Part shown: positions 21,751 through 43,774 of the stretch, in pieces
How the letters are laid out: each line of letters begins with the position of its first letter
How positions within the stretch are numbered: position 1 is the first letter of the stretch
Assembly (NCBI GenBank): GCA_964456225.1
Contig: CAYWAV010000006.1
Location: 5,030-54,710 of the forward strand
Direction: 5' to 3'
DNA length: 49,681 nt
From: an uncultured Chitinophaga sp.
GTDB taxonomy: Bacteria > Bacteroidota > Bacteroidia > 2-12-FULL-35-15
Translations under genes and position numbers: made by a program
The notes under the pieces: model-generated
The model's database searches: none
What the model was told of the DNA's origin: nothing
What the model saw: the letters and a program-made list of their open reading frames with translations, nothing else

Positions 21751-21831
21751 TTTATTTTTTTTAAATGTTATAAATCAATGGAATTATTCTTAAGATGCTA
21801 TCGAAAGAAAAATTCCATAATTATTATTAAT

Positions 21832-22494: not shown

Positions 22495-22532
22495 ATTTTT
22501 AAAAATTATTTAATATAATTAATCAGCGAAAC

Positions 22533-27935: not shown

Positions 27936-28029
27936 GATTTAGGATTTAATGGTTCATTGCTGAATTGAAAGTTTTATGTTTTTTGTGAGAACGTTTAGGT
28001 GGAAATATTACTGTTGAATGAGGTGAATA

Positions 28030-28059
28030 AAAAGGCTCTTCAATTTTGAAGAGTCTTTT
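28030..28059 (-). terminator. nuo operon terminator
   Basis: AAAAGGCTCTTCAA-TT-TTGAAGAGTCTTTT just after nuoN. Confidence 0.8.
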
Positions 28060-28077
28060 CAATGATGATTTATTATT

Positions 28078-29448
28078 TTACAACAACTTAATCACACAAT
28101 CAGGGAACAAGCCCATAGCAATGATTAGGATTGCGATAAACAACAATAATAATTTATGATTGCTTTCTACTGGCACAGCTTCTGTGCCAATACTTTCTTT
28201 GAAATACATAGCGATGATCAATCGGAAATAATAATATACTCCGATTAGCGATGCAATGATTGCAATTAAAACTAAGCCTACATTTCCTGCAACAAATGCA
28301 GAGGTGAAAATATAATACTTGGCGAAGAATCCTGCTGTTGGTGGAATTCCGGCTAATGATAAAAGAGCGATGGTCATTACAATTGCTAAAAATGGATTTG
28401 TTTTTGCCAGACCGTTGAATGAATCTACACCGTCTGAATTTTTTGCAGTTGAAATAATATGAACGATACAGAATGTTGCGATGGAACCAATAGAATAAGC
28501 TGCGGCATAAAATAAAATAGCGCTGTTTGAATACTCGTTTCCTGCAAGCAATGCCAATAACATATAACCAGCGTGTGCCACACTTGAATAAGCAAGCATG
28601 CGTTTTGTGCTTGTTTGAACAACTGCAGTAATGTTTCCAACCAATAATGTTAATGCTGCCATTACCCAAACTACATTCATCCATACACCACTTACTTCCA
28701 TGAATGTTGTAGAAAACAATCTTAAGAAAGCCGCAAATGCTGCTGTTTTCACGATGGTTGACATGAATGCCGTAATCATAGTTGGTGCGCCTTGATAAAC
28801 ATCCGGAGCCCAGAAATGAAATGGTGCAGCAGAAACTTTAAATGCCATTCCGACTAACATTAATAAAACTCCTACAGAAAAAATAGACATCGCTGCTGTT
28901 CCAGATGAAACTGCATTTACTATTTCAGAAAGATCAAACGAGCCTGTAGCTCCGTAAATTAAAGCGATTCCGAACAACAAGAATCCGGTTGCAAATGCAC
29001 CCATTATTAAATATTTGAATGCGGATTCGTTTGATGAAACATCTGTTTTATTACTTCCAGCTAAAATATACATTGGAATAGAAAGAATTTCTATTCCCAA
29101 GAATAACATGGCCATGTTGTTGTAAGAAACCATCATAACCGCTCCTACCAAGGCAAAGAGAACCAATGCAAAGTGGTCGGTTAAATTTGTTTCTTCTTTG
29201 AAAAAGCCTTCTGCCATAATGAACCAAAGGAATGCTACAACTATAATTACACCTGTAAATGCAACAGCATAATTATCGTATTGCATCATTTTAAAATACG
29301 TATGATTTGTATCCCAATCAAAAATATTTAGAACGAATGCAGTAATTAAACCAAGCAATACGATTGGATACAACAGTTTTTTAAAGCTGAAAATTTCAGC
29401 TAATAATGCAATAACGCCTAATGAAGAAAGTAATACTAATGCTTTCAT
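28078..29448 (-). CDS. nuoN: NADH-quinone oxidoreductase subunit N
   Basis: FKVSAAPFHFWAPDVYQGAP, KRMLAYSSVAHAGY. Confidence 0.97.
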   Translation of the reverse strand: MKALVLLSSLGVIALLAEIFSFKKLLYPIVLLGLITAFVLNIFDWDTNHTYFKMMQYDNYAVAFTGVIIVVAFLWFIMAEGFFKEETNLTDHFALVLFALVGAVMMVSYNNMAMLFLGIEILSIPMYILAGSNKTDVSSNESAFKYLIMGAFATGFLLFGIALIYGATGSFDLSEIVNAVSSGTAAMSIFSVGVLLMLVGMAFKVSAAPFHFWAPDVYQGAPTMITAFMSTIVKTAAFAAFLRLFSTTFMEVSGVWMNVVWVMAALTLLVGNITAVVQTSTKRMLAYSSVAHAGYMLLALLAGNEYSNSAILFYAAAYSIGSIATFCIVHIISTAKNSDGVDSFNGLAKTNPFLAIVMTIALLSLAGIPPTAGFFAKYYIFTSAFVAGNVGLVLIAIIASLIGVYYYFRLIIAMYFKESIGTEAVPVESNHKLLLLFIAILIIAMGLFPDCVIKLL

Positions 29449-29471
29449 ATTTTGTTCTTACGAATTTTACG

Positions 29472-29496
29472 CCCTTCGACTCCGCTCAGGGTGACG
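29472..29496 (-). repeat. CGTC-tagged REP-like palindrome (copy 1)
   Basis: CGTCACCCTGAGCGGAGTCGAAGGG; 23/24 identical to 34054-34077. Confidence 0.8.
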
Positions 29497-29515
29497 TTTA
29501 ATTTCTGTTAAATAC

Positions 29516-30982
29516 TTATTTACCCAATGCTGTATTAAGCCCTGTTATCAACTGATCCACCGATGGCGAAACAATATCTGTTAATGGTTTTGGAAACACT
29601 CCAAACACAATAATTGCTGCACAAATTATAATCAATACTGCTTTTTCACTTGTTTCTAATGGAGCAAATGAAGAAGTAATTGTATTTGTTTCGCCCAACA
29701 TAATGGATTGGTAACTGCGCAACATATAAACAGCGCCTAATATAACCGACAATCCTGCAAAGCCCGCCATCCATGGATTAAACTGATACACTCCATTTAA
29801 CAATAAAAATTCTCCAACAAATCCGTTTGTTAATGGAAGTGCTACACTTCCTAATAAAACGATTAAAAATAAAACTGCGAATTGAGGATTCACATTTCTG
29901 ATTCCGCCTAAAGCAGCTATTTCGCGAGTGTTTGTGCGTTTTTGAATTAAATCAACGATGAAGAATAATCCAACAACGTTTACACCGTGACTCAACATTT
30001 GAATCATTGCACCTTGAACTCCTTGCGTGTTCATAGATAAAATTCCTGCAGCAATTAATCCAACGTGAGCGATAGATGAATAAGCGATTAATCTTTTGAA
30101 ATCTTTTTGTGCGATAGCGATGCAAGAAGCATAAACCACTCCGAATACCGCCAATCCAATCGCAATGTTTGCATATTTTTCAACGCCTAATGGCGCTAAA
30201 GGCAACAACCAACGAATCACTCCGAATGTTCCCATCTTTAACATGATTCCCGAAAGCATCATTGTTCCTTGCGTTGGAGCTGTTGTATAAGTATCCGGCT
30301 GCCAAGTGTGGAAGGGAAACACAGGCATCTTCACTGCAAATGCAATAAACATTGCCCAGAATACATATCCTTGGTGAACAACATCTAAACTTTGTCCGGC
30401 TGTATAAAGTGCTGTAATGTCAAAACTGTGTTCCCCGGGTGTGTGCAGGTATAAATAAATTAATCCTCCTAGCATGAATAAACTTCCTGCTAAGGTGTAA
30501 ACAAAAAATTTGAATGTAATTCTTGCTCTGTCCTCTCCACCCCATAACAAACAAATAAAATAAATTGGAATAAGTGCAAGCTCCCAGAATACATAAAACA
30601 AGAATCCATCTAATGAAACAAACACTCCAACTAATGCCATTTGCATGATTAGAATCAAGGAATAAAACGCAGATGGATTTTTGTGTTCTGTATTGAAAGA
30701 GGTAAGAATGATAACAGGAACAAGAAAAGTAGTAAGCAAAACCAGCAACATGGAGATTCCATCAATACCAACATGGAAAGTTATTCCAAGAGATTGCACC
30801 CAAGCATAATTCCATTCAAATTGCGTTGTTGCATCTTGATGAAATTGAGTCAATGCAAAAACTGCGATTGCAAATTCTAAAATTGCTGCGCCCAATGCAA
30901 GTGTTTTTACTTTTGGTCCTTTTACAAACAACAATAGTAAACCTGCAACTAAAGGAAAAAATATTAATAATAATGTGATCAT
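29516..30982 (-). CDS. nuoM: NADH-quinone oxidoreductase subunit M
   Basis: FYVFWE, KMPVFPFHTW, LKMG, KRLIAYSSIAH. Confidence 0.97.
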   Translation of the reverse strand: MITLLLIFFPLVAGLLLLFVKGPKVKTLALGAAILEFAIAVFALTQFHQDATTQFEWNYAWVQSLGITFHVGIDGISMLLVLLTTFLVPVIILTSFNTEHKNPSAFYSLILIMQMALVGVFVSLDGFLFYVFWELALIPIYFICLLWGGEDRARITFKFFVYTLAGSLFMLGGLIYLYLHTPGEHSFDITALYTAGQSLDVVHQGYVFWAMFIAFAVKMPVFPFHTWQPDTYTTAPTQGTMMLSGIMLKMGTFGVIRWLLPLAPLGVEKYANIAIGLAVFGVVYASCIAIAQKDFKRLIAYSSIAHVGLIAAGILSMNTQGVQGAMIQMLSHGVNVVGLFFIVDLIQKRTNTREIAALGGIRNVNPQFAVLFLIVLLGSVALPLTNGFVGEFLLLNGVYQFNPWMAGFAGLSVILGAVYMLRSYQSIMLGETNTITSSFAPLETSEKAVLIIICAAIIVFGVFPKPLTDIVSPSVDQLITGLNTALGK

Positions 30983-31042
30983 AATTTATTAAATAAATTC
31001 TAAATCTTAACTTTTATTCTTCTTCGTAATTTACATTCGCTA

Positions 31043-31076
31043 AATCCCCCTAACCCCCTTTTTCAAAGGGGGAATT
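31043..31076. repeat. C/G-rich hairpin repeat
   Basis: AATCCCCCTAACCCCCTTTTTCAAAGGGGGAATT; identical except one T to 42918-42950. Confidence 0.85.
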
Positions 31077-31129
31077 GAGTCTGCTAATATTCTAATATAT
31101 ATTATTCTATAATAATCTTATTTCAAAAA

Positions 31130-33028
31130 TTAAAAGAGCTGTGTAAATAAAATCAACACAATACTAATCACCATTACAAAAATGTAAAACCCAATGTTTC
31201 CGGTTTGTGCCAAACGAATTGTTCCACTCATCCAACTGACAGCTGAGCCTACTCCATTTACAATTCCATCTACCAATTGATTGTCGATAATTTTATGAAA
31301 TGCATCAGAAATCATGTTCAATGGTCGTGTAATAAAACTTTCATAAATTTCGTCCACCCAATATTTATTGTAAACTAATTTGTGAAGTGGGTTTAGGTCT
31401 TTTCCTTCAGCAGGAGGCAATACACCTTTCTTCACGTAAGTAGTGAATGCATAATAAATGGCCCCAATCATAACAGCTGTTGCAACACCCATTAAGATGT
31501 ATTCTGTTTGATGTGATAAATGGTGAACCAAACGGAAAGAAGAGGCTTCGAATACCGGACTTAAAAACGCTTCTAAATAATGATTGCCATGTAATACAGC
31601 TGGAATACCAACCAATCCGCCAACGACAGACAGAACAGCCAAAACCATCAAGGGAATTGTCATTGATTTTGGTGATTCGTGAAGATGGTGTTCTTGTTCG
31701 TGTGTTCCTCTGAATTTTCCGTGGAAGGTTAGGAAATATAAGCGGAACATATAAAAGGTTGTCATTGCTGCTCCTAAAATTCCTAAGAACCAAAGTAATT
31801 TATTGTGAGCAAAAACATTTGCTAAAATTTCGTCTTTAGAAAAGAATCCTGAGAAAGGGAAACAACCTGCGATGGCGAGTGTTCCAATTAAGAATGTAAT
31901 GTGAGTTGTAGAAATGTATTTTTTCAATCCACCCATTTTACGAATGTCTTGTTCGCCACTCATTGCATGAATCACACTTCCTGCACCAAGGAATAACAAT
32001 GCTTTGAAGAAAGCGTGAGTCATTACGTGAAACACCGCTCCGGTATAAGCACCCACTCCTAAAGCGAGGAACATATATCCTAATTGTGATACGGTAGAAT
32101 AAGCCAATACTTTTTTAATATCGTTTTGTGCCAAGCCGATTGTTGCAGCAAACAAAGCAGTACAAACACCAATGATGGCAACAACATTCATTGCATCAGG
32201 AGAAAGTGTGTATAAAATATTTGAACGTGCAATCATATAAATACCTGCCGTTACCATGGTTGCAGCATGGATCAATGCAGATACAGGAGTTGGCCCCGCC
32301 ATCGCATCGGGTAACCAAGTATACAATGGAAGCTGTGCACTTTTTCCCATAGCACCAATAAACAATAACAATGCAATGATTGTAATGGTTGTATTACCAG
32401 AGCCCATATTTTTTGCTTGCTCAAATACATCGTGATAGCCGATGCTTCCGAACGTTACAAAAATTAAAATGATTCCTAATAAAAATCCTAAATCTCCAAC
32501 ACGATTCATGATGAATGCTTTTTTCGCTGCATTGTTGTAAGCCGTATTTTTAAACCAGAATCCAATTAATAAGTAAGAACATAATCCAACGCCTTCCCAA
32601 CCAACAAACATAATTAGGTAGTTGGAACCCATCACCAATAATAACATGAAGAAAATAAACAAGTTCAGATATGCGAAGAAACGAGAAAACCCTTCATCGT
32701 GACTCATATATCCAGCAGAGTAAACGTGAATTAAGAATCCAATTCCTGTAATGATTAGCAGGAATAAAGAAGAGAGTGGATCAATTAAAAAAGAAAATGG
32801 AATGGAAAGTTTTCCTGCAGAAATCCAATTAAACAATTCAACTGTGTATTCTTTTTGAACTCCATTTTTCAATTCGAAAAATATTCCAACAGCAATTGCC
32901 AGAGCTCCAAAAATAACTCCACTACCAATTATTCCAACAAGTCCTTTCGATAATTTTTTTCCAAATAGCCCAATGATAATAAATCCTATCAAGGGAAGAA
33001 GCGGTACTAACCAAACTAATTTTATCAT
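31130..33028 (-). CDS. nuoL: NADH-quinone oxidoreductase subunit L
   Basis: GKSAQLPL.TWLPDAMAGPTPVSALIHAATMV. Confidence 0.98.
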   Translation of the reverse strand: MIKLVWLVPLLPLIGFIIIGLFGKKLSKGLVGIIGSGVIFGALAIAVGIFFELKNGVQKEYTVELFNWISAGKLSIPFSFLIDPLSSLFLLIITGIGFLIHVYSAGYMSHDEGFSRFFAYLNLFIFFMLLLVMGSNYLIMFVGWEGVGLCSYLLIGFWFKNTAYNNAAKKAFIMNRVGDLGFLLGIILIFVTFGSIGYHDVFEQAKNMGSGNTTITIIALLLFIGAMGKSAQLPLYTWLPDAMAGPTPVSALIHAATMVTAGIYMIARSNILYTLSPDAMNVVAIIGVCTALFAATIGLAQNDIKKVLAYSTVSQLGYMFLALGVGAYTGAVFHVMTHAFFKALLFLGAGSVIHAMSGEQDIRKMGGLKKYISTTHITFLIGTLAIAGCFPFSGFFSKDEILANVFAHNKLLWFLGILGAAMTTFYMFRLYFLTFHGKFRGTHEQEHHLHESPKSMTIPLMVLAVLSVVGGLVGIPAVLHGNHYLEAFLSPVFEASSFRLVHHLSHQTEYILMGVATAVMIGAIYYAFTTYVKKGVLPPAEGKDLNPLHKLVYNKYWVDEIYESFITRPLNMISDAFHKIIDNQLVDGIVNGVGSAVSWMSGTIRLAQTGNIGFYIFVMVISIVLILFTQLF

Positions 33029-33046
33029 ACTCTATTTTTCAATTTG

Positions 33047-33076
33047 CAGTTGGCAATTAAACAGTTGGCAATTGCC
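33047..33076. repeat. CAGTTGGCAA short-repeat cluster
   Basis: CAGTTGGCAATT x2; related cluster at 36911-36942. Confidence 0.7.
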
Positions 33077-33101
33077 GAGCTGTGTTTGCTAACCAATTAT
33101 T

Positions 33102-33419
33102 TTACCACTTAAGTTTGTTCAACATATTGATGTCAGATGATTTTGTATTTCTATACACCATCATCAAAATTGCTAATCCTACAGCTACTTCTGCGGCAGC
33201 TACGGCCATAATAAAAAACACAAATACTTGTCCTTTACTGTCAGATAAATAACTGGAAAAAGCAACAAGCAATAAGTTTACTGCATTCAGCATCAACTCT
33301 ATCGACATAAAAATGATGATTGCATTTCGTCTAATTAAAACCCCAGCTACGCCAATGGTGAACAGCACTGTGCTTAAAAGAATGTACCATTCAATAGGAA
33401 TTGTTTGTATTGCGCTCAT
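33102..33419 (-). CDS. nuoK: NADH-quinone oxidoreductase subunit K
   Basis: [21 protein letters not shown]. Confidence 0.97.
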
Positions 33420-33421
33420 TT

Positions 33422-33532
33422 GGCTCCTCCAGCCTCCCCAAAGGGAAGGGTTTAAAATTTGTTTTTAATAATTAACTTATTCTTCATTTAGCTCAATCCC
33501 TAAGCCCTCCTTTAAGGAGGGTTTGGGTGGGC
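33422..33532 (-). repeat. Inverted hairpin doublet enclosing mini[14 protein letters not shown] (33487-33452)
   Basis: CCCTCC-TTTAA-GGAGGG and CCTCCCC-AAA-GGGAAGG with oppositely oriented tails. Confidence 0.75.
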
Positions 33533-34033
33533 CTATTTTATGCTTTTTTTACCCAACATTACTGCACCAACCATTGCTGCTAACAACAAGATGGAAGATA
33601 CTTCAAATGGCAATAAAAAATCGTTGAACAATGTCATTCCCAAGTTCTCAATTAATCCAATGCTTGCATCAAATGTATTTGTGGATTGAATTGTTTCTGC
33701 TCCTTTTAAAGCGCCAACCAATACAACTAGAAGCGAACCGGAAGCAACAACCGCTGATCCTTTCAGCCAAATGCTTTTATGTGGTTCCGTTTCTTTATTC
33801 AAATTCAAAAGCATAATCACAAATAAAAACAAAACCATAATCGCTCCTGCATACACAATGATGTGAACTGCTGCTAAAAACTGAGCGTTCAATAAAACAT
33901 AATGTCCTGCAATTGCAAAAAAGGTAAGTACCAAATACAAAACACTGTGAATAGGGTTTTTAGTTAAAACCACCATCGATGCAAACATCAGCGCTAAGAA
34001 GGATAATAAGTAAAATAAATATTCTGTAATCAT
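33533..34033 (-). CDS. nuoJ: NADH-quinone oxidoreductase subunit J
   Basis: NPIHSVL, VYAGAIMVLFLFVIML, PFEV. Confidence 0.97.
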   Translation of the reverse strand: MITEYLFYLLSFLALMFASMVVLTKNPIHSVLYLVLTFFAIAGHYVLLNAQFLAAVHIIVYAGAIMVLFLFVIMLLNLNKETEPHKSIWLKGSAVVASGSLLVVLVGALKGAETIQSTNTFDASIGLIENLGMTLFNDFLLPFEVSSILLLAAMVGAVMLGKKSIK

Positions 34034-34053
34034 AATAGTGTTGTTTGTCGTTT

Positions 34054-34078
34054 CCCTTCGACTACGCTCAGGGTGACA
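34054..34078 (-). repeat. CGTC-like REP palindrome (copy 2)
   Basis: TGTCACCCTGAGCGTAGTCGAAGGG. Confidence 0.8.
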
Positions 34079-34093
34079 CTAGCTTTTAGAAAA

Positions 34094-34705
34094 CTAATGA
34101 CGATCGATTTTTGTCTTTTTATTTTTATTGAATGTTTCGTTGTGAGCAAACTCATTGTGTTTTTTAAATTCAGCAACACTTGAAGTTTCGCGCACACTCA
34201 CATCCACACGTTTGTCTTTTTCAATTCCTTCTACCAAAATATCTTTTCCGTAAATAAGTTCTTTTCGAGTATAAAAACTGTCCACTTTTCTATCCGTTAA
34301 AAAGATTGCTTCTTTCGGACAAGCTTCTTCGCAATCTCCACAAAAGATACAGCGTAGCATATTTATTTCATAAACAGCAGCATACTTTTCTTCGCGGTAT
34401 AAATGCTCTTCACCGGGCTTACGTTCTGCAGCAACCATTGTAATGGCTTCAGCGGGACAAGCAACAGCGCACAATCCACAAGCGGTACAACGTTCTGCTC
34501 CAATTTCGTCTCGTTTTAAAGTATGTTGTCCACGATAAATTTTACTAAACTCACGTGTTTGTTCAGGATATTTTATTGTTACTGATTTTTTGAAAAGGTG
34601 AGTGAACGTAATCCACATCCCACTGAAAATAGCGGGCAGATACATTCTTTCAAGAAATGTCATCTCCTTTTTTGAAACAACTTGTGATCTGTTAGTTAAT
34701 TGCAT
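34094..34705 (-). CDS. nuoI: NADH-quinone oxidoreductase subunit I
   Basis: Two CxxCxxCxxxCP motifs. Confidence 0.97.
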   Translation of the reverse strand: MQLTNRSQVVSKKEMTFLERMYLPAIFSGMWITFTHLFKKSVTIKYPEQTREFSKIYRGQHTLKRDEIGAERCTACGLCAVACPAEAITMVAAERKPGEEHLYREEKYAAVYEINMLRCIFCGDCEEACPKEAIFLTDRKVDSFYTRKELIYGKDILVEGIEKDKRVDVSVRETSSVAEFKKHNEFAHNETFNKNKKTKIDRH

Positions 34706-34711
34706 TTTTAT

Positions 34712-35791
34712 TTACTTAAAAAAATATGTTATTATTTCATGGCGCATCATTACAGCACCTGTGATTATCAAATTAAATATCGATAATGGAATTAATATTT
34801 TCCATCCTAAATTCATTAATTGATCGTAGCGGAAACGGGGCAATGTCCAACGCACCCACATGAATAAAAAGATGAACCCAACAATTTTCATAAATAAGAA
34901 AACGAATCCTAAAATGGCTAACCAGTTTGGATCGTGCACCCATCTTCCAATCAGCGGCATGTTGTATCCACCAAAATAGAATGTAGCAATTACTGCAGAA
35001 GAAATAAACATGTTGATGTATTCTGCGAATAAAAACAATCCTAATTTCATGGAACTGTATTCGGTGTGATATCCGCCTACTAATTCTGTTTCACATTCCG
35101 GTAAATCAAACGGAGCGCGATTGGTTTCTGCGAAAGCACAAATAATAAAAATCAAACAGCCCAGTGGTTGATAAAATACATTCCAATTAAATGATGGAGT
35201 ATCAAATATTCCCCATAATTTTCCAACACCTTGTTGAGCTGCAATTTCTCCAGTGCTCAATGTTCCCGTCATCATTACCAAGGCAATGATTGAAATCCCC
35301 ATTGCTACTTCGTAACTAATCATTTGTGAAGAAGCACGAATTGCACCCAACAAAGAATATTTATTATTAGAAGCCCAACCACCAATCATGATTCCGTAAA
35401 CACCTAAAGAAAGAACACCAAATAAATAAAGAATTCCAATGTTCACATCCGCAATTTGCAATGGATAATCAACGCCACCAATGTTGATGGATTTTCCCCA
35501 AGGAATAATTACACCCGTCATACAAGCAGTAAGCATACACAATCCCGGACCAATGATAAAAAGTATTTTATTAGAAACACTTGGAATCACTTCTTCCTTC
35601 ATAAACATTTTCACCGCATCGGCTAATGGCTGAAGAATTCCGAAAGGACCAGCTCTGTTCGGGCCAATACGATCCTGAAGAAATGCTGCAATTTTTCTTT
35701 CAGCATAGGTGCTGTAAGTCGCAACCAATAATGTGATTGAAAACACAATCAACACCAAAATTATTTTATATATCAGAAAATCTATTGTCAT
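34712..35791 (-). CDS. nuoH: NADH-quinone oxidoreductase subunit H
   Basis: QDRIGPNRAGPFG, ETNRAPFDLPE, PRFRYDQLM. Confidence 0.98.
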   Translation of the reverse strand: MTIDFLIYKIILVLIVFSITLLVATYSTYAERKIAAFLQDRIGPNRAGPFGILQPLADAVKMFMKEEVIPSVSNKILFIIGPGLCMLTACMTGVIIPWGKSINIGGVDYPLQIADVNIGILYLFGVLSLGVYGIMIGGWASNNKYSLLGAIRASSQMISYEVAMGISIIALVMMTGTLSTGEIAAQQGVGKLWGIFDTPSFNWNVFYQPLGCLIFIICAFAETNRAPFDLPECETELVGGYHTEYSSMKLGLFLFAEYINMFISSAVIATFYFGGYNMPLIGRWVHDPNWLAILGFVFLFMKIVGFIFLFMWVRWTLPRFRYDQLMNLGWKILIPLSIFNLIITGAVMMRHEIITYFFK

Positions 35792-35797
35792 ATTTAA

Positions 35798-35906
35798 AGC
35801 TCCTCTAATCTCGACAAATTCGAGAATTTCTTTTTTGTTGTTTAGTTTTTTTGCTTCTCACCTATCACCCCCTCTCTTTATGGAGAGGGGATTAAGGGGA
35901 GAGGCT
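35798..35906. repeat. Hairpin doublet, one copy degenerate
   Basis: CCCCTCTC-TTTATG-GAGAGGGG-ATTAAGGGGAGAGG; decayed partner GCTCCTCTAATCTCGA...TCGAG. Confidence 0.7.
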
Positions 35907-36902
35907 TTATTTTTTCTTGGCTACCAGTTGTTTTTGTTGTTTACCAATATCCAATTTCAATTGCGCTAAATTCTCATAGTGGTTTTGTGAAATAACAGAA
36001 TGACGATCGATGTGTGTTGGTTTTTCAATCACCCAATCTTTCGCATCTTTTTTCTCGAAACGACAATCGTTACAAATCCAATCGATTGCTTCTCCCCACT
36101 GATCCTTACGAGCAGTCACACGCAACACTTCATTTCCTTTCATCCAAATAGCAACCTTACCAGAACATTTTGTACAGTTGCGGTGAGCATCCATTGGTTT
36201 TGTAAACCAAACGCGACTTTTGAAACGCCATGTTCTATCGGTTAATGCACCAACTGGACAAACATCAATTACGTTTCCAGAAAAATCGTTATCAATTGCT
36301 TTCTCGATGTAAGTACTAATTTCAGAGGCATCTCCGCGGAACAACATTCCTTGGAAACGGTTATTTGTAATTTGATCAGCCACTTTAATGCAACGGAAAC
36401 ACATGATACAACGCGTCATGTGTAACTTAATGTAAGGACCGATATCAATTAAATTAAATGTTCTTCTTGAAAAATCGTAGCGTGTTTTTGCTAATCCGTG
36501 TTCGTACCCTAAATCTTGCAAATGACACTCTCCTGCTTGATCGCAGATAGGACAATCTAATGGGTGATTGATTAATAAAAATTCAACAACACCTTTTCTA
36601 GCTTCTAATACTTCAGGAGAAGTTGTATTTACCACTTCCATTCCATCCATTACAAATGTTCTACAAGACGCAACTGGCTTGGGCATTGGGCGGGGATCTT
36701 TTTCAGAACCTTTTGTAACTTTAACAATACAGGTACGACAATATCCACCACTCGTTGTTAATTTTGAGTAATAGCACATTGTAGGAGGAGCAACTTTTGC
36801 GTCCACCTCCGGATTTTTTTCTACAAGCATACGCGCTGCTTGCAAGATGGTTGTTCCATCCGGCACTTCAATCGTATGTCCGTCTATCGTAACTTTCGCC
36901 AT
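35907..36902 (-). CDS. nuoG: NADH-quinone oxidoreductase subunit G (short form, Fe-S domains only)
   Basis: CY...GYCRTC, NHPLDCPICDQAGEC, RCIMCFRC, DVCPVGAL. Confidence 0.95.
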   Translation of the reverse strand: MAKVTIDGHTIEVPDGTTILQAARMLVEKNPEVDAKVAPPTMCYYSKLTTSGGYCRTCIVKVTKGSEKDPRPMPKPVASCRTFVMDGMEVVNTTSPEVLEARKGVVEFLLINHPLDCPICDQAGECHLQDLGYEHGLAKTRYDFSRRTFNLIDIGPYIKLHMTRCIMCFRCIKVADQITNNRFQGMLFRGDASEISTYIEKAIDNDFSGNVIDVCPVGALTDRTWRFKSRVWFTKPMDAHRNCTKCSGKVAIWMKGNEVLRVTARKDQWGEAIDWICNDCRFEKKDAKDWVIEKPTHIDRHSVISQNHYENLAQLKLDIGKQQKQLVAKKK

Positions 36903-36972
36903 TTTAAATTCAATTGGCAGTAGGCAATTTTTCAGTTGGCAAGCCAGCTTTTTGCGATACTGTTTTTATTTT

Positions 36973-37191
36973 TTAACTATTTTTCTTCGTTTCAGCATCA
37001 AGAAATACAACCGCGAGCCCTTTCTCAACTTTATTATATCTACCGTCCCACCACTCTTTGTTTTTATTTTCTTCGACCTTTATTAACTCTGCTTTTTTAA
37101 TTGGTTCATAGCCATCCTCATATCCTTCTGTTACAACCAAAGCATCGGCAGGATATCCTTTTAATGTCTCTATTAATTGTTGAACAGTCAT
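36973..37191 (-). CDS. Small hypothetical protein inserted in the nuo operon
   Basis: MTVQQLIETLKGYPADALVVTEGYEDGY; co-oriented; not a complex I subunit. Confidence 0.75.
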   Translation of the reverse strand: MTVQQLIETLKGYPADALVVTEGYEDGYEPIKKAELIKVEENKNKEWWDGRYNKVEKGLAVVFLDAETKKNS

Positions 37192-37227
37192 TGGAGATTA
37201 GTATTATTAAAAAATAGGTTTATTATT

Positions 37228-37272
37228 TTACGCTCCCTGCAATTGATTAACACTATAAATAATATTTCTCAT
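37228..37272 (-). repeat. Duplicate of the nuoF 3' end forming miniORF MRNIIYSVNQLQGA
   Basis: 37228-37258 matches 37852-37882 at 29/31, both differences synonymous. Confidence 0.9.
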
Positions 37273-37275
37273 CTT

Positions 37276-37809
37276 TTATTCTTTAGTTTTAAATCCAATC
37301 GTGTTTCTCTTTGTTTTTTCGGTGGTCTTCTTTTCGACCACCAACAATTCGGGTTGTGTGAGCAAAAAGTTTATTACTTCATTTATATTTTCGATTTTTG
37401 TATTAAATTTTGCTTCCAACTCAATAATTCGTTCATTCAAGAGTTCAAAATTATTATTGTATTGTTTTAACAGAATAAAAGCATCTACAATTGCAATACT
37501 TGTTTTTATGGCAGTGTCACTTTTTAAAACAGCCGAAAGCATTGTTATTCCATGCTCTGTAAAAGCATAAGGCAATTTTCTCATTCCCATTTTTTCACGA
37601 TTGGATATCACAATTTGTGACATCCAATTTTGAAGTTCAACTTTGGTAAATTGAAACATATATCTTTCAGGGAACCTTTTGATATTTCTTTTTACCGCTT
37701 GAACCAATACTCTTGTCTCAACACCATAAAGTCCAGCCAAATGAAAGTCAAGCATCACACGATGTCCGCGCACTTCAAATATTTTCTTCTGAATGATTTG
37801 TAGTTCCAT
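37276..37809 (-). CDS. ORF6N-domain DNA-binding protein inserted in the nuo operon
   Basis: IFEVRGHRVMLDFHLA.LYGVETR.L.QAVKRN..RFP, PYAFTEHG..MLS.VLKS, C-terminal IGF. Confidence 0.93.
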   Translation of the reverse strand: MELQIIQKKIFEVRGHRVMLDFHLAGLYGVETRVLVQAVKRNIKRFPERYMFQFTKVELQNWMSQIVISNREKMGMRKLPYAFTEHGITMLSAVLKSDTAIKTSIAIVDAFILLKQYNNNFELLNERIIELEAKFNTKIENINEVINFLLTQPELLVVEKKTTEKTKRNTIGFKTKE

Positions 37810-37820
37810 TTTAACTATTT

Positions 37821-37849
37821 TTTTGATATCCCAATTGGGGATATCAAAA
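37821..37849. promoter_or_regulatory. Palindrome upstream of the ORF6N gene (putative operator)
   Basis: TTTTGATATCCC-AATTG-GGGATATCAAAA. Confidence 0.6.
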
Positions 37850-37851
37850 CT

Positions 37852-39195
37852 TTACGCTCCTTGCAATTGATTTACACTATAATAATGTTTAACGTCTTTA
37901 ATTTTTTCCGGATGATTGATATATTCTTCGAACTCCGCACGGAAGTGGCGAATAGCGCTTGCCACAGGCCATGCAGCTGCATCACCTAATGGACAAATTG
38001 TATTCCCTTCAATTTTTCTTTGAATGTCCCAAAGCAAATCTATATCCGTTGGTTTTCCGTGACCTTCAATAATTCTGTGAAGAATTTTTTCCATCCAACC
38101 AGTTCCTTCACGACAAGGAGAACATTGTCCGCAACTTTCGTGATGATAAAAACGAGCAAAGGTGTAAAGGTTTTTTACGATACTGGTTGTTTCATCATAT
38201 ACAATGAATCCACCAGAACCAAGCATAGAGCCTGATACAAAACCTCCCTCACTTAATGATTCGTATGACATCAAACGAGGTTCACCTTTATCTGTTTTTA
38301 AGATTAAATCGGCTGGTAAAATGGGAACAGAAGAACCTCCTGCAACAACTGCTTTTAGTTTATTCCCGTTGATAATTCCACCGCAATATTCATCTGAATA
38401 AATAAATTCTTCAACCGGTAATCCCAATTCAATTTCGTAAACACCCGGTTTATTAATATGTCCGGATGCAGAAATTAATTTTGTTCCTGTGCTTCTTCCG
38501 ATTCCAATTTTTGCATACTCGTCTCCACCCATCATGATGATCGGACAAACAGCAGCAATTGTTTCAACGTTATTTACAACAGTGGGACAACCCCACACAC
38601 CAGCGATTGCCGGGAATGGTGGTTTGATACGCGGGTTTCCGCGTTTTCCTTCTAGTGATTCTAACAATGCTGTTTCTTCACCGCAGATGTATGCCCCTCC
38701 ACCAACTTGCACGTAGCAATCGTGAGAAAAATCTGATCCTAAAATATTTTTTCCTAATAATCCTGCAGCGTATGCTTCATCAAGCGCTTTCTCTAAAATC
38801 CTTGCAACATAAAAATATTCTCCGCGGATATAGATGTAAGACGTTTTTGCGCCTAATGCATAAGATGATGTAATCATTCCTTCGATCAATAAATGAGGAA
38901 TAACTTCCATTAAGTAACGGTCTTTAAATGTTCCCGGCTCCGATTCATCAGCATTACAAACCAAGTAGCGCTCAACACCTTCGGGTCGTGCAAGGAAACT
39001 CCATTTCATTCCTGTTGGGAAACCTGCACCACCACGACCTCTCAGTCCTGATTTTTTTACCTCTTCTAACACTTCAGGAGGAGTCATTGTTTTCAATGCT
39101 TTTTCTACTGATGCATACCCGCCATGTTGGCGATACACGTCAAGTGTTGCGATTCCTGGAACTTTATCGTTATGTATTAATAATTTTTTTCCCAT
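37852..39195 (-). CDS. nuoF: NADH-quinone oxidoreductase subunit F
   Basis: GLRGRGGAGF, NADESEPG, GAYICGEETAL, CGQCSPC; ATG 39195 (upstream MGVRS lies in a hairpin). Confidence 0.98.
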   Translation of the reverse strand: MGKKLLIHNDKVPGIATLDVYRQHGGYASVEKALKTMTPPEVLEEVKKSGLRGRGGAGFPTGMKWSFLARPEGVERYLVCNADESEPGTFKDRYLMEVIPHLLIEGMITSSYALGAKTSYIYIRGEYFYVARILEKALDEAYAAGLLGKNILGSDFSHDCYVQVGGGAYICGEETALLESLEGKRGNPRIKPPFPAIAGVWGCPTVVNNVETIAAVCPIIMMGGDEYAKIGIGRSTGTKLISASGHINKPGVYEIELGLPVEEFIYSDEYCGGIINGNKLKAVVAGGSSVPILPADLILKTDKGEPRLMSYESLSEGGFVSGSMLGSGGFIVYDETTSIVKNLYTFARFYHHESCGQCSPCREGTGWMEKILHRIIEGHGKPTDIDLLWDIQRKIEGNTICPLGDAAAWPVASAIRHFRAEFEEYINHPEKIKDVKHYYSVNQLQGA

Positions 39196-39332
39196 AGACC
39201 TCACCCCCATCCCCTCTCCTTCGGAGAGGGGGGAGGATTTCGTTTTAGTTTATGTTTTTTGTTTTAATCAAAATATTTTTACAACCTCACCCCAGCCCTC
39301 TCCTTGAACAAGGAGAGGGGGATGATTTCGTT
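39196..39332. repeat. Two tandem CCCTCTCC/GGAGAGGG hairpins
   Basis: ACCTCACCCC(C)A.CCC(C)TCTCC-loop-GGAGAGGGGG..GATTTCGTTTTA x2. Confidence 0.88.
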
Positions 39333-39872
39333 TTATAATGTGTTTTTATAGTCTAAATCCGTGTAACTTCTTTGTTTTCCAGCAGCACGATATTCTTCTA
39401 ATAAATTATCTACTTTTTCGAAAGTTAAATTTTCGTGGTATGATGCTCCGCATTGCAATAGTGGTGCTGTTCCGCAACTTCCTAAACATTCAACCGTTTT
39501 GATAGTAAACATTCCGTCCTTTGTTGTTTCCCCTTCTTTTATTCCTAATTTTTTCTCCAAGTGTTTTACGATGTCTTCCGCTCCACGTGTCCAGCAAGAA
39601 GAGGTGCGACACACTTCCAACAAACATTTTCCAACTGGTTTTAAATTATACATCGAATAAAAAGATGCTACTTCATACACTTCAATTGGTTTAATATTTA
39701 AGATGGCAGCAACGTAATCCATTGTTTCCGGGCTTAACCATCCGCCAAATTCTGCCTGAGCAATGTGCAAAATCGGAAGTAATGCCGACTTGTGTTTGCC
39801 TTCAGGATAACGCTTAATCATCTTGTGAACAAGAGCAAGTGTTTCTTCGTTAAATTTTATTTCTTGTGCCAT
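39333..39872 (-). CDS. nuoE: NADH-quinone oxidoreductase subunit E
   Basis: VASFYSMY, VCRTSSC, ECLGSCGTAP. Confidence 0.97.
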   Translation of the reverse strand: MAQEIKFNEETLALVHKMIKRYPEGKHKSALLPILHIAQAEFGGWLSPETMDYVAAILNIKPIEVYEVASFYSMYNLKPVGKCLLEVCRTSSCWTRGAEDIVKHLEKKLGIKEGETTKDGMFTIKTVECLGSCGTAPLLQCGASYHENLTFEKVDNLLEEYRAAGKQRSYTDLDYKNTL

Positions 39873-39873
39873 C

Positions 39874-39925
39874 TTACAACCTCACCCCCAGCCCCTCTCC
39901 GAAGGAGAGGGGAGAGGCTTCGATT
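39874..39925. repeat. CCCTCTCC/GGAGAGGG hairpin
   Basis: TTACAACCTCACCCCCAGCCCCTCTCC-GAA-GGAGAGGGG; preceded on the minus strand by miniORF MKQVN. Confidence 0.88.
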
Positions 39926-39966
39926 TTATATTTTTAGTTTACTTGTTTCATTTTCTTGCCAAAACC

Positions 39967-41238
39967 CTATGCATCTAGTTCTCCTGCAATTACATTCATG
40001 CTGCTCATTGTTAAAATTGCATCTGATAAGAATCCGCCTTTAATCATTTCCGCGTATGCTTGATAATAAATAAAACACGGTCTGCGCATGTGCAAACGGT
40101 ATGGTGTTCTTCCGCCATCGCTAATTAAGTAATAGCCAACTTCTCCGTTACCGCCTTCAACTGCATGGTATACTTCGCCTTTCGGAATTTCTGTTTCGCC
40201 CATCACAATTTTAAAGTGATAGATTAAAGCTTCCATGTTGTTATAAACTTCTTCTTTTGGAGGAAGGAAAAATTCAGGAACATCGGCATGAAAAATTCCT
40301 TCTGGCTCTTTTTTAATTTTTGCAATTGCCTGGTGAATAATTTTTACGCTCTCCCACATTTCTTGTTGACGCACCATAAAACGATCGTAAGTATCACCTT
40401 GTGTTCCCACAGGAATAATAAAATCGAATTCTTCGTATGAGCAATATGGATTCATTACACGCACATCGTAATCAACACCTGCTGCACGCAAATTCGGACC
40501 AGAGAAACTATAGTTCAACGCACGCTCTGCTGATATTGGTCCGCAGTTAATGGTACGATCCATAAAAATTCTATTTCTCATTAAAAGATTTTCAAATTCT
40601 TTTAATGCAGGAGGGAAATCAATTAAAAATTTATCTAACAAGTCCCAAGCTTTAGGAGTAAAGTCTCTTTCCAATCCACCAATGCGACCAATATTCGTAG
40701 TTAAGCGAGCTCCACACAATTCTTCATAAATATCATAAATACGTTCACGCATTTGGAAGATATATAAGAAACCTGTCATTGCACCTGTATCCACACCAAT
40801 AACACTATTACAAATTACGTGATCGGAAATACGCGCCAATTCCATAATGATTACACGCATGTATTGAACGCGTTTCGGAATTTCTACTCCTAATAATTTT
40901 TCAACGGTCATGTGCCATCCCATATTGTTAATTGGCGATGAACAATAATTTAAACGATCGGTGATTGGAGTAATTTGATAATATGGTCTGCGTTCTGCTA
41001 ATTTTTCGAATGCACGGTGAATATATCCAACAGTGGATTCAGAATCCATAATTATTTCGCCATCCATTTTTAACACGTTCTGAAAGATACCGTGTGTAGC
41101 GGGATGTGTAGGACCAAGGTTAAGAGTAGAGTATTCAGCCTCTCCCTGGCCCTCTCCCAAGGAGAGAGAGTGGTTACTCGTTTTTACTTTTTCAATTTTA
41201 TTTTTTGTACTCATTTTATAAGTCTTCTTTTTACGCAC
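39967..41238 (-). CDS. nuoD: NADH-quinone oxidoreductase subunit D, with repeat-derived N-terminus
   Basis: LNLGPTHPATHG, GYIHRAFEK, RLNY; start is GTG 41238 or ATG 41214. Confidence 0.97.
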   Translation of the reverse strand: MRKKKTYKMSTKNKIEKVKTSNHSLSLGEGQGEAEYSTLNLGPTHPATHGIFQNVLKMDGEIIMDSESTVGYIHRAFEKLAERRPYYQITPITDRLNYCSSPINNMGWHMTVEKLLGVEIPKRVQYMRVIIMELARISDHVICNSVIGVDTGAMTGFLYIFQMRERIYDIYEELCGARLTTNIGRIGGLERDFTPKAWDLLDKFLIDFPPALKEFENLLMRNRIFMDRTINCGPISAERALNYSFSGPNLRAAGVDYDVRVMNPYCSYEEFDFIIPVGTQGDTYDRFMVRQQEMWESVKIIHQAIAKIKKEPEGIFHADVPEFFLPPKEEVYNNMEALIYHFKIVMGETEIPKGEVYHAVEGGNGEVGYYLISDGGRTPYRLHMRRPCFIYYQAYAEMIKGGFLSDAILTMSSMNVIAGELDA

Positions 41239-41276
41239 AGCCTCCTTCCCTTTGGGAAGGTCGGGATGGGCTTTTA
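41137..41276 (-). repeat. Hairpin doublet whose second hairpin lies in frame within nuoD
   Basis: CCTTCCC-TTT-GGGAAGG at 41244-41260; CCCTCTCC-CAA-GGAGAGAG at 41150-41168 encodes part of SLSLGEGQGEA. Confidence 0.85.
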
Positions 41277-41777
41277 TCGGCCAAACATTTTATCATCTTT
41301 ATCTTCACGCGTTCCATCTTCCAATGCGTATTCTTTTCTCATTGGGTGATACGTCATTTCATCCATATTCAAAATGCGTTTTAAGTTTGGGTGGCCTCTG
41401 AAAATAATTCCGAAGAAATCAAACTCTTGTCGCTCCATCCAATTAGCAGCAGAAAACACAGATGTGATAGAAGGAACATTGACATCGCTGCTGCTAAAAA
41501 ATATTTTTATTCTGATTCTTAAATTTTTTGAAAGGTTATGCAGTTGATACATCACAGCAAATTCTTGTCCTGCATTTTCGGGATAATGAATGGTTGCCAT
41601 CGTAGTTAAATATTGAAAAGCAAGTTCTTCATCTTTGTAAAGAAAATCGACTACCTCACAAATCAAATCTCTTTTTACAACAAATTCAGGATAATCCACA
41701 TTCATTGTGGAAGAGATAAATCCGTCTCCGAATTGTGCTTTTAATTTGCTTTCAACTGCTGTTAATAATGCTTCCAT
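41274..41777 (-). CDS. nuoC: NADH-quinone oxidoreductase subunit C
   Basis: AANWMERQEFDFFGI.F.GHPNLKRIL, HPMRKEY; ATG 41777. Confidence 0.96.
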   Translation of the reverse strand: MEALLTAVESKLKAQFGDGFISSTMNVDYPEFVVKRDLICEVVDFLYKDEELAFQYLTTMATIHYPENAGQEFAVMYQLHNLSKNLRIRIKIFFSSSDVNVPSITSVFSAANWMERQEFDFFGIIFRGHPNLKRILNMDEMTYHPMRKEYALEDGTREDKDDKMFGR

Positions 41778-41914
41778 AGACCTCACCCCTAGCCCCTCTC
41801 CGAAGGAGAGGGGGAGGATTTCGTTTTAGTTATATGCTTTTTTTTCTAATCTCAATTTGTAATTCTTTTTTTCTACCATCTGCTCCTTCCCTTTGGGAAG
41901 GGCGGGATGGGCTT
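41778..41914 (-). repeat. Inverted hairpin doublet enclosing miniORF MVEKKNYKLRLEKKAYN (41879-41826)
   Basis: 41883-41917 nearly identical to 41242-41276; 41774-41831 nearly identical to 39192-39250. Confidence 0.88.
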
Positions 41915-42475
41915 TTATTCCATTCCGTAACTATTCAACAATGCTTTGTATTCAGGAGAATCTCTTCTTCTGATTGATTCTGATTCCACTAGTTTTTGAA
42001 TCTGTAAAATACCGTCCAATACTTGCTCAGGACGTGGAGGACAACCAGGAATGTAAACATCTACTGGAATAACCCTGTCGATTCCTTGAAGAACACTGTA
42101 TGTATCAAAAATTCCACCGCTAGAAGCACAGGCGCCCATTGATAAAACCCATTTAGGTTCTGCCATTTGTTCGTAGACTTGTTTTAATACCGGAGCCATT
42201 TTTTTAGAGATAGTTCCCATTACCATTAATAAATCAGCTTGACGAGGAGAGAAGCTTAAACGCTCCGCTCCGAAACGACCTAAATCGTAAGTAGATGCCA
42301 TGGTTGCCATAAACTCGATTCCACAACAAGATGTTGCAAAAGGCAAAGGCCACAATGAATTTGCGCGAGCCATCCCAACTACCTTATCAATGCGTGTAGC
42401 AAAAAAACCTGGCCCTTCAATTCCGGCAGGAGCATCTGCATCTAAATTTACCTTTGATTTTTCTTTTGTACTCAT
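41915..42475 (-). CDS. nuoB: NADH-quinone oxidoreductase subunit B
   Basis: SCCGIE, SPRQAD, GACASSGG, PGCPPRPE. Confidence 0.98.
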   Translation of the reverse strand: MSTKEKSKVNLDADAPAGIEGPGFFATRIDKVVGMARANSLWPLPFATSCCGIEFMATMASTYDLGRFGAERLSFSPRQADLLMVMGTISKKMAPVLKQVYEQMAEPKWVLSMGACASSGGIFDTYSVLQGIDRVIPVDVYIPGCPPRPEQVLDGILQIQKLVESESIRRRDSPEYKALLNSYGME

Positions 42476-42509
42476 TATATTTTTTTTAAAGTGGTATTAC
42501 CACAAAAAA

Positions 42510-42914
42510 TTAATTTAAAATTAAAGTAATTACCATTTCTGGAACTTCCTTTGCTGATTTCCCACTTTGAACCAGTTGCACTCCACTTATCAACAATTTA
42601 TCTCCTAATTTTTTATCTGTATGCAATTGTTCTATCGCTGTCATTGCGCCCTTTCCAAACTGATTAGTTTTTGAAGGATATTCATCAAACAAAAAATCTT
42701 TTTTCACAACTCTCTTAACTGTAAGAACAAATGAACTAACAGAAGTATTTTTATCTAGAGGTGTTAATTCTTTTTTACAAGCATAAAACTCTTCCCATGT
42801 CATGGTGCAATCGCCTGTTTTTCCACCAAATGAAAAAGCTGGTTTCGCACCTTGTACAAAAGACAAGGATGTTGCAACTAAAACAATGAACGCTATTCTA
42901 ATTATAATTCTCAT
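42510..42914 (-). CDS. Exported protein resembling a stand-alone GldM/PorM C-terminal domain, inserted in the nuo operon
   Basis: Signal peptide from ATG 42914; FGGKTG...VSSFVLTV...NQF...IEQL...GDKLLISGVQ...MVITL. Confidence 0.65.
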   Translation of the reverse strand: MRIIIRIAFIVLVATSLSFVQGAKPAFSFGGKTGDCTMTWEEFYACKKELTPLDKNTSVSSFVLTVKRVVKKDFLFDEYPSKTNQFGKGAMTAIEQLHTDKKLGDKLLISGVQLVQSGKSAKEVPEMVITLILN

Positions 42915-42917
42915 ATC

Positions 42918-42950
42918 AATCCCCCTAACCCCCTTTTCAAAGGGGGAATT
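42918..42950. repeat. C/G-rich hairpin repeat
   Basis: Near-identical to 31043-31076. Confidence 0.85.
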
Positions 42951-42952
42951 AA

Positions 42953-43330
42953 TTACTCCCACTTTAATGCTCCCTTTTTCAAGATGTAATAAAACCCAAC
43001 CAATAAAAAGCCCACAAACGTTAACATCTCCACAAATCCAACCAATCCTAATTCTTTAAAATTTACTGCCCATGGATACATGAAGATCACCTCCACATCA
43101 AACAATACAAACAAAATTGCGACTAGAAAATATTTGATGGAAAAAGGTAAACGTGCATTCCCCTGAACTTCTATTCCACACTCAAATGTTTCAGATTTAA
43201 TTTTTGATTTCTTTTTTGGTCCAAGCTGATGCGTAAGAAAAAGCATAAATAAAACGAAGCCGAGAGCAACAATAAACATTAGTGCGATAGGAACAAAATC
43301 AGCGGGAGTACTTTGGACTGCTAACAACAT
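42953..43330 (-). CDS. nuoA: NADH-quinone oxidoreductase subunit A
   Basis: FECG, YFLVAILFVLFDVE, KGALKWE. Confidence 0.97.
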   Translation of the reverse strand: MLLAVQSTPADFVPIALMFIVALGFVLFMLFLTHQLGPKKKSKIKSETFECGIEVQGNARLPFSIKYFLVAILFVLFDVEVIFMYPWAVNFKELGLVGFVEMLTFVGFLLVGFYYILKKGALKWE

Positions 43331-43516
43331 AGAATCAAGTTTTTCTTTTCGACCTCAATTTTAGGTATTTCTTTTGAAATAACCCAAATTTTGCTCACAA
43401 ATTTACTGTTTTAATAGAGAGCCGAATGCAGTATTTTGGTTATTTAGACCGAATCCCGTTTGTGGACGATGATTTGTGCTTAAAGACTGGTTTTCTATTG
43501 CTTTGGGTGGGCTAAA

Positions 43517-43774
43517 TCAATAATGAAACTTACAGGAAATAACAATAATAGCTTCTGGCGTAACCTGATAAACTAATCGGTGCTCTTTGTTAATTCTGCG
43601 ACTCCAACATCCTTTTAATTGGTGCTTTAATGGCTCAGGCTTGCCAATACCATTAAATGGACTCGTTTGAGTGGCTTGTAAAAGGTCAATGATTTTGTTA
43701 TAGATTTTTTTGTCCGCTTTTTCCCAACCGTTAAATTGAACTTGTGCGGTAGTCGTAAATAAAAACTTCCTCAT
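43517..43774 (-). CDS. yoeB: Txe/YoeB family toxin
   Basis: PFNGIGKPEPLKH, WSRRINKEHRLVY, C-terminal FHY. Confidence 0.95.
   Translation of the reverse strand: MRKFLFTTTAQVQFNGWEKADKKIYNKIIDLLQATQTSPFNGIGKPEPLKHQLKGCWSRRINKEHRLVYQVTPEAIIVISCKFHY

Follow-up and report, generated by a model that had tools for sequence, protein, structure and literature searches.

Free-standing homing endonuclease genes of the GIY-YIG and Vsr-like EDxHD kinds encode small nucleases and occur patchily at fixed sites of conserved genes and operons. The intervening sequences (IVSs) of 23S rRNA carry an open reading frame (ORF) for the protein IVP (PF05635), enclosed by inverted repeats able to form a long stem. 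Repetitive extragenic palindromes (REPs) are short, GC-rich and dispersed mainly between genes, often form inverted doublets (REPINs), and accompany a small gene flanked by the same repeats, which encodes a Y1 transposase (REP-associated tyrosine transposase, RAYT). Here we analyze the repeats that fill the gene junctions of the nuoA–N operon, the 14 Complex I genes of an uncultured Chitinophaga sp., within a 49,681-nt stretch of DNA (the window; G000:C6:5030-54710) taken from a 4.1-Mb source assembly (G000; 35% GC, 254 contigs). We propose, with a probability of about 0.68, that these repeats, either solo ends or doublets, are what is left, without the ORF, of small selfish cassettes that fall into at least three classes and are frequent in the genus. 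Positions below are those of the window unless a contig of the source assembly (prefix C) is named; the prefixes L and G denote loci and genomes in our comparison.

The repeats at this locus resemble several described systems and match none of them entirely. They share with REP/REPIN–RAYT systems the palindromic build, the frequent inverted doublets and the small flanked gene, but in place of Y1 transposases the partners here are nucleases (DUF559 or GIY-YIG) or a four-helix-bundle protein. Unlike homing endonuclease genes, the cassettes are bounded by structured inverted repeats with hundreds of ORF-less copies, and they lie in operon junctions or are read through in frame instead of residing in introns or inteins. 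As in 23S rRNA, PF05635 ORFs are found within inverted repeats, but the loci that we read closely (those of the source genome and the nuoH/I, thiolase and suf-type loci) stand between protein genes and not in rRNA helices. REPs with a CGTC tag have been reported in Bacteroidetes, apparently without a dedicated transposase, as have GGGGWSAS-type terminal inverted repeats around some Y1 genes (Di Nocera et al. 2013, PMC3733652). Two junctions carry repeats like the former, with a CGTC/GTCA tag on one end of a short palindrome and no flanked transposase, a likeness judged by tag and description; here, such repeats also flank small GIY-YIG genes (22/26), a link absent from the passages of PMC3733652 that we consulted. 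[quoted passage not shown] By that description alone, RPEs, as palindromes translated in frame, compare with the N-terminus of NuoD and with DUF559 units in MetH-like and Acs-like proteins, but RPEs are geneless, whereas the full form here adds a nuclease domain of ~150 aa. MITEs such as Correia and Chunjie, as characterized there, are similar in size (~110-140 nt), in their terminal inverted repeats and in leaving operons unbroken, and the nuoJ/K junction indeed has a short non-coding core enclosed by terminal inverted repeats; the elements here differ in having no insertion sequence-type transposase as partner, a DUF559 gene between the ends, and no definable target-site duplication. A search of an open literature library found no paper in which repeat families flanking DUF559, GIY-YIG, GxxExxY or IVP genes are linked to them.

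The operon occupies 28078..43330 on the minus strand, from nuoA, which starts at 43330, to nuoN, which ends at 28078; ORFs delineated the genes, Pfam confirmed nuoA to nuoG, and tblastn showed collinearity with 20 relatives. Twelve of the 13 junctions are expanded, to 59-949 nt: A/B 477, B/C 137, C/D 59, D/E 94, E/F 122, F/G 949, G/H 115, I/J 60, J/K 113, K/L 73, L/M 147 and M/N 67 nt. The sole compact and unoccupied one is H/I (6 nt, 34706..34711, minus strand). An earlier first-pass annotation, made from the letters of the window, had described 12 of 13 junctions as colonized with H/I exempt, and both the measured lengths and the positions of the repeats bear this out. Its statement that the neighboring exb/tonB operon is free of repeats agrees with exbB and exbD (21154-22967), whose junctions hold no element.

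The clustering of repeats in the nuo operon is real and non-random. We applied a uniform detector (a perfect hairpin with pyrimidines in the 5′ arm and purines in the 3′ arm, hereafter Y/R; a GTCA..GAGC..TCGA motif; or paired GTTGGCA/TGCCAAC heptamers) to gene calls from an ATG-only ORF caller. It scored 11/15 nuo junctions as positive against 199/2206 co-directional junctions genome-wide (9.0%; binomial P = 3e-9). Among sliding windows of 15 junctions, the nuo operon, with 11, was the densest place in the genome, the next best having 5, and only 1/33 of the remaining junctions of the window was positive. Two other detectors were abandoned: one for GC islands (14 of 20 nt) was too noisy, calling 1704 islands within coding sequence, and an energy-based hairpin scan, in which nuo tied with two regions that proved to be unrelated genes with terminators, was replaced by the family-based detectors. 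In a genome census, 253 perfect GC hairpins were found, 191 of them intergenic, and 308/494 stable hairpin regions belonged to repeated families. In the CCCTCTCC family, the tail lay ≤3 nt from a stop codon in 15/26 copies that faced a gene end, and the other end was never ≤3 nt from a gene among 22 antisense copies.

Three classes of cassette could account for these repeats. Class 1, at eight junctions and the 5′ end of nuoD, comprises Y/R GC hairpins of 35-50 nt with a GGGGTGAGG-type tail, corresponding to the terminal inverted repeats of genes for DUF559, a Vsr/PD-(D/E)XK-like endonuclease. Class 2 (I/J and M/N) consists of GTCA/CGTC-tagged REPs that serve as the inverted repeats of GIY-YIG nuclease genes of ~100 aa. 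Class 3 (K/L and the end of F/G) is made up of clusters of TGCCAAC (CAGTTGGCAA clusters), each representing one arm of the oligo-repeat arms around four-helix-bundle genes of the 23S-rRNA-IVS family. Gene–repeat associations, doublet architecture, turnover among relatives and ends translated in frame are all established at the level of sequence.

DUF559 (PF04480) and GIY-YIG (PF01541) both gave matches above cut-off in the source genome. Directly upstream of each of the five DUF559 copies in this genome stands a Y/R hairpin, of the CCCCTCTCC, CCTTCCC or CCCCCTT kind, and the copy at C55:10157-10501 forms a full unit, GACCTCACCCC..hairpin..ORF..hairpin..GGGGCGAGGTC, with the tails pointing outward. 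In the genus, a perfect Y/R hairpin lay within 250 nt upstream of 23/29 and downstream of 27/29 DUF559 loci (29 of the 30 best-scoring among 74 matches, L058 being left out), against 21/586 and 25/586 control genes, or ~4%. The loops of the upstream and downstream hairpins are reverse complements of each other. The nuo repeats connect to these units in detail: the core of the B/C hairpin matches the right end of the DUF559 unit on C48, for the CCTTCCC hairpins, the match is to the left ends of the units on C9 and C15, and in full units the counterpart of the AAAACGAAAT that adjoins the stem of solo nuo hairpins is the final DUF559 codons (..KTEL or ..QTKL). Hairpin look-alikes of a recombination site that adjoin promoterless small ORFs also recall integron cassettes with attC-type hairpins. 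Here, inverted repeats stand on both sides in place of a single 3′ attC, and the units are scattered and not arrayed at an attI (no search for intI was made), leaving an integron-like origin barely credible.

The two other gene classes behave similarly. Exact inverted repeats flank small GIY-YIG loci (four UvrC-sized loci omitted) at ≥10 nt in 22/26 and at ≥14 nt in 17/26, with the sequence GTCA..GAGC..TCGA, against 59/388 and 5/388 controls, respectively. For four-helix-bundle (PF05635) loci, inverted repeats of ≥10 nt were found in 22/28, after two loci without a tblastn match had been dropped, against 27/393 controls, and the four GxxExxY genes of the source genome have similar inverted arms. 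In four relatives (L004, L006, L015 and L017), the H/I junction holds a four-helix-bundle gene enclosed by GTTGGCA...TGCCAAC arms, from which we take the K/L and F/G clusters of the window to be single arms. That DUF559, GIY-YIG and four-helix-bundle genes are flanked by such repeats had been suggested in the first-pass annotation; it proved right in the source genome and in the genus, and the controls agree.

Some of these genes occupy sites of another kind. Small GIY-YIG genes at C5:324-530, C60:6296-6511 and C7:44899-45480, and at L100 and L108, lie inside tRNA genes or next to them, flanked on both sides by duplicated tRNA halves. A sufB/sufC-like junction holds a four-helix-bundle cassette at C35:34629-35051, conserved across several species (L118, L121, L128), and cassettes of this type with different arms recur in a thiolase junction (L113, L114, L127, L139, L140).

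Comparison of the nuo loci of 20 genomes, with junction lengths of -8 to 2024 nt, revealed extensive turnover. Loci from other families of the class are compact, with outgroup gaps of -8 to 15 nt (12/13 junctions ≤15 nt in L011, 5/6 ≤12 in L010, 4/5 ≤9 in L019). Between the sisters L001 and L015 of a NuoF+G tree, occupancy differs at 5/10 junctions scored in both, and L004, L005 and L006 differ as well. A strain ~95% alike (contig from run X12) has 36905 joined to 37879 by 26 other letters, so that the entire 949-nt F/G cargo is absent there; it retains the E/F, G/H, I/J, J/K and K/L elements, and its L/M sequence differs. Relatives carry inserts of 282-303-aa or 209-212-aa proteins at D/E and assorted genes at F/G, an ORF6N gene at E/F (L009) and a PF05635-type four-helix-bundle gene at M/N (L012). 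Junction cargo thus varies among relatives, contrary to the invariance that would have counted against the first-pass annotation. Collapse of cassettes, which it had also suggested, is visible at H/I as a series: the gene with both arms in the four relatives named above, a 3′ remnant of the last 19 codons with the arms (L003), the arms only (L005, L014), and a compact junction in the window operon and others. Presence and absence at one site is clear for this four-helix-bundle cassette; for DUF559, the orthologous sites compared were occupied ones.

Many small junctions of relatives (L003, L008, L015, L020) are stop-to-start inverted doublets of the form GACCTCACCCC..hairpin..AT-rich spacer..hairpin..GGGGTGAGGT. 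The E/F and M/N doublets of L020 have homologous spacers, which makes the unit a MITE-like element of ~130 nt. A nested insertion was seen at E/F of L003, where a CGTC-type REP lies in the loop of a Y/R hairpin. The G/H junctions of L018 and L020 hold a gene for a 323-334-aa cytochrome c with only short AT-rich spacers.

The same hairpins might instead be RNA elements that the host has selected in the nuo mRNA for processing, stabilization or tuning of stoichiometry. Stable hairpins between cistrons would suit such a role: 5/12 junction segments folded better than shuffled sequences (z -2.3 to -4.8), and compensatory changes preserve the stems from family to family. The remaining 7/12 segments, among them both CGTC solos and both TGCCAAC half-sites, showed no better-than-shuffle folding, and an Rfam scan of 27900-43600 at E ≤ 1 returned nothing over threshold (a MIR8643 hit with E 0.17, scoring 25.8 bits where the gathering score is 135, was taken as chance). 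Since outgroup junctions are compact, sister species differ, and members of the families are found in either orientation, within coding sequence and flanking nuclease genes, we consider host-selected RNA elements improbable, although secondary co-option may have taken place.

Another explanation is that these are ordinary REPs or REPINs mobilized by a RAYT, which landed in the operon by chance. The source genome does possess four RAYT-like Y1_Tnp genes (on C129, C29, C7 and C8), and its CGTC family (71 match places genome-wide) forms many REPIN-like inverted pairs. Each RAYT-like gene, however, lies in its own REP array of a non-nuo type, a classical REPtron, no CGTC match stands beside a Y1 gene, and the GTAG tag of the REPs beside the C7 gene is absent from the nuo families. 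Nuo-type motifs were found within 770 nt of 0/30 Y1_Tnp loci in the genus (29 when the unpublished L047 is set aside). There is no Y1 transposase on this contig, in line with the first-pass annotation, which had seen no cognate transposase in the window; a search of the source genome for tail-out hairpin pairs around a transposase found none and surfaced the C55 DUF559 cassette. Chance landing of RAYT-mobilized repeats is thus highly improbable, and we conclude that the junction repeats are not RAYT-type REPs but belong to nuclease and four-helix-bundle cassettes.

Some elements have been drawn into proteins. At nuoD, the spacer of a doublet supplies the ATG, and its right hairpin is translated in frame as HSLSLGEGQGEAE (NuoD codons 15-27); long forms of the NuoD N-terminus, in which the hairpins are decaying, occur in 6/20 loci, the others being short. 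One doublet thus now encodes the N-terminus of NuoD. Three DUF559 units of the source genome (C48:5274-5582, C15:5127-5432 and C9:15038-15343) lie with both hairpin ends in frame within ORFs of 1392, 782 and 1025 aa, respectively, the ends being translated as LTPSPSPKERG and PLSFGEGLGVRS. Judging from flanking motifs, the host ORFs look like methionine synthase (MetH-like) and acetyl-CoA synthetase (Acs-like). In the genus, 27/73 DUF559 matches outside an unpublished genome lie within ORFs of ≥300 aa (L051-L077 are examples).

We infer the manner of movement by comparison. The nuclease would break DNA in or close to an empty site, whereupon the cassette would be copied in by repair, with the hairpin ends as homology, in a homing-like spread; afterwards, the ORF would be lost through deletion between the inverted ends. 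Relics would last because they are stop-free, self-folding and harmless to co-transcription. The pile-up in nuo may reflect that, over 15 kb of coding sequence that is essential, insertion is tolerated in junctions of ~0-10 nt alone, together with local copying (between B/C and C/D and between E/F and B/C). Stop- and start-anchored insertion, as proposed in the first-pass annotation, needs no special mechanism within the operon: the anchoring mostly reflects ancestral gaps of -1 to about 10 nt, in which any tolerated insert contacts both codons.

Several observations weigh against descent from nuclease-driven cassettes. The evidence for movement is comparative throughout, with none observed directly. 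TA or TAA flanks some copies as a candidate target-site duplication, which comparisons of empty and filled sites do not match cleanly, and no duplication could be defined from them. The genus loci are the 30 best-scoring matches and no random sample, and the genomes are kin; the statistics of enrichment depend on gene calls from a crude ORF caller and on detectors built from regular expressions. We know of no strand-transfer activity of DUF559 or GIY-YIG domains, and the four-helix-bundle protein is not a nuclease, which leaves class 3 without a candidate enzyme. Two genomes without a DUF559 match (G003, 99% complete; G001, 85% complete) nevertheless carry nuo Y/R hairpins, with four such junctions in L015, so relics persist or spread without a resident nuclease.

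Finally, the data fit equally well nuclease genes that home into pre-existing palindromic repeats. On this view, the repeats are mobile independently or self-propagating, and the genes for DUF559, GIY-YIG and four-helix-bundle proteins would be parasites that arrived secondarily by homing into the middle of doublets. Empty doublets exist, at J/K here and at E/F and M/N of L020; the hairpins in genomes without a DUF559 match suit it too; and solo repeats outnumber genes, one hairpin family having 52 copies against five DUF559 genes. Units embedded in coding sequence, on the other hand, always have both ends and the gene, in frame, and in different species occupy one host site; solo nuo hairpins keep the 3′ codons of DUF559 at their inner end, as expected of internal deletion; and the Y1_Tnp genes that we checked offer no alternative enzyme for the repeats. 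We therefore regard secondary homing into self-propagating repeats as unlikely, though a serious contender.

This lineage, and probably much of Bacteroidota, may harbor undescribed nuclease-driven cassettes with structured, stop-free, translatable inverted ends, inserted in operon junctions and, read through in frame, in essential genes such as those for MetH, Acs and NuoD, whose relics are 'orphan' REPs including the CGTC type. We advance this broader claim only tentatively, at less than even odds. The small GIY-YIG genes that carry CGTC-type REPs as inverted ends offer a candidate for the enzyme of these REPs, a question left open in the literature, and DUF559 is likewise tied to a second large family of hairpins. 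Even a core respiratory operon can take up a dozen selfish inserts, one of them now the N-terminus of NuoD. Annotation of such genomes should expect spurious small ORFs, shifted starts and in-frame nuclease domains, and repeats of this kind fragment assemblies.

Letter-by-letter reading of the junctions gave twelve Y/R GC hairpins in nuo: six of the CCCTCTCC type (35869, 39211, 39296, 39892, 41793 and the nuoD-internal 41137-41170), two of the CCTTCCC type (41244, 41885), two of the CCCCCTT type (31054, 42929) and the J/K pair (33505, 33433). With them are CGTC-type repeats at 29469-29496 and 34054-34077 and TGCCAAC clusters at 33038-33071 and 36909-36942. Pairs that had been called near-identical are 72-90% identical, so the term was overstated. 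The features below are all on the minus strand.

Between nuoA and the A/B cargo gene stands a CCCCCTT-type hairpin with a GGGGGATT tail (42915..42952), whose family numbers 34 clustered copies across the genome. B/C (41778..41914) is a hybrid doublet: a CCTTCCC-type hairpin is followed by an A-rich spacer, in which a 17-aa mini-ORF lies, and then by a CCCCTCTCC-type hairpin, the GGGGTGAGGTCT tail of which abuts the nuoC ATG (minimum free energy (MFE) -44.2, z -2.9). The C/D junction with the first 26 nuoD codons (41137..41273) is a second copy of this doublet, 78% identical over 81 nt. D/E (39873..39966, z -3.1) holds a solo CCCCTCTCC hairpin with its tail, preceded by a 5-aa mini-ORF, and E/F (39196..39332, z -4.8) two CCCTCTCC hairpins, the second of which stops 3 nt short of the true nuoF ATG (39195). 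The CCCCTCTC hairpin at G/H (35792..35906, z -4.8) has the opposite orientation, and 2 nt separate its tail from the stop of nuoG. J/K (33420..33532; MFE -33, z -1.6) is an inverted doublet of two Y/R hairpins with an AT-rich spacer, an empty cassette; of the inverted doublets described in the first-pass annotation, only this one and the B/C hybrid are such, the E/F doublet being direct. The solo CGTC-tagged REPs open with TGTCACCC at I/J (34034..34093) and with CGTCACCC at M/N (29449..29515). K/L (33029..33101) has the single TGCCAAC arm of four-helix-bundle type, and L/M (30983..31129) a solo CCCCCTT-type hairpin at 31043-31076. Mini-ORFs ending in AAC-TAA, as had been described, are indeed present, with 17 aa at B/C, 5 aa at D/E and, from a TTG start, 8 aa at E/F, but the ending is a conserved repeat end in three local copies and no evidence of genes; out of frame with the DUF559 remnant, the mini-ORFs look incidental. 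In four runs, metagenome contigs end or diverge exactly at the hairpins 39879, 39916, 41778 and 41813.

Whole foreign genes do occupy two junctions of the window, as had been noticed: A/B with a 134-aa gene and F/G with an ORF6N gene and a 72-aa ORF. The proposed distinction between empty and filled cassettes largely holds for the system, but membership of these three genes is not supported; they lack matching inverted ends on their flanks, and NCBIfam gave no match for any of their proteins. The ORF6N gene (177 aa; PF10543, E 1.6e-31; 37276..37851, including an upstream GATATC...GATATC palindrome at 37821-37849) is 80% identical in DNA to that at E/F of L009. Such palindromes lie upstream of 4/5 genome copies (C89, C150 and C12 among the sites), the broken C14 copy having none. 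Their pattern, ..ATC.CAATTTG.GAT.., is conserved directly upstream of the gene and falls outside the hairpin families; it is probably the gene's own operator. Downstream of ORF6N, 37227..37258 is a 32-nt copy of the 3′ end of nuoF, 94% identical to the original at 37851-37882, which suggests a duplication–deletion that shifted ORF6N from before nuoF, as in L009, to behind it. This is a simpler reading of the 32-nt repeat than an att site, a long duplication or a target duplication. The 72-aa ORF with its TGCCAAC cluster (36909-36942), at 36903..37191, abuts nuoG, and an 84-aa homolog with the same cluster is present at F/G of L014. In the 2-kb insert at F/G of L013 (2024 nt), a 21-nt unit is repeated nine times in tandem, alongside two ORFs and several hairpins that resemble terminators.

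The A/B gene (42510..42914) encodes a 134-aa protein with a signal peptide and no Pfam match; in Atlas, it falls in Bacteroidota hypothetical clusters with a weak GldM_4th lead. Proteins of this family (130-137 aa) are encoded at A/B in the window and in five relatives (6/17 loci), with a paralog at B/C in L001, and may be accessory periplasmic partners. They have a conserved GKTGNC..W.EF..C motif.

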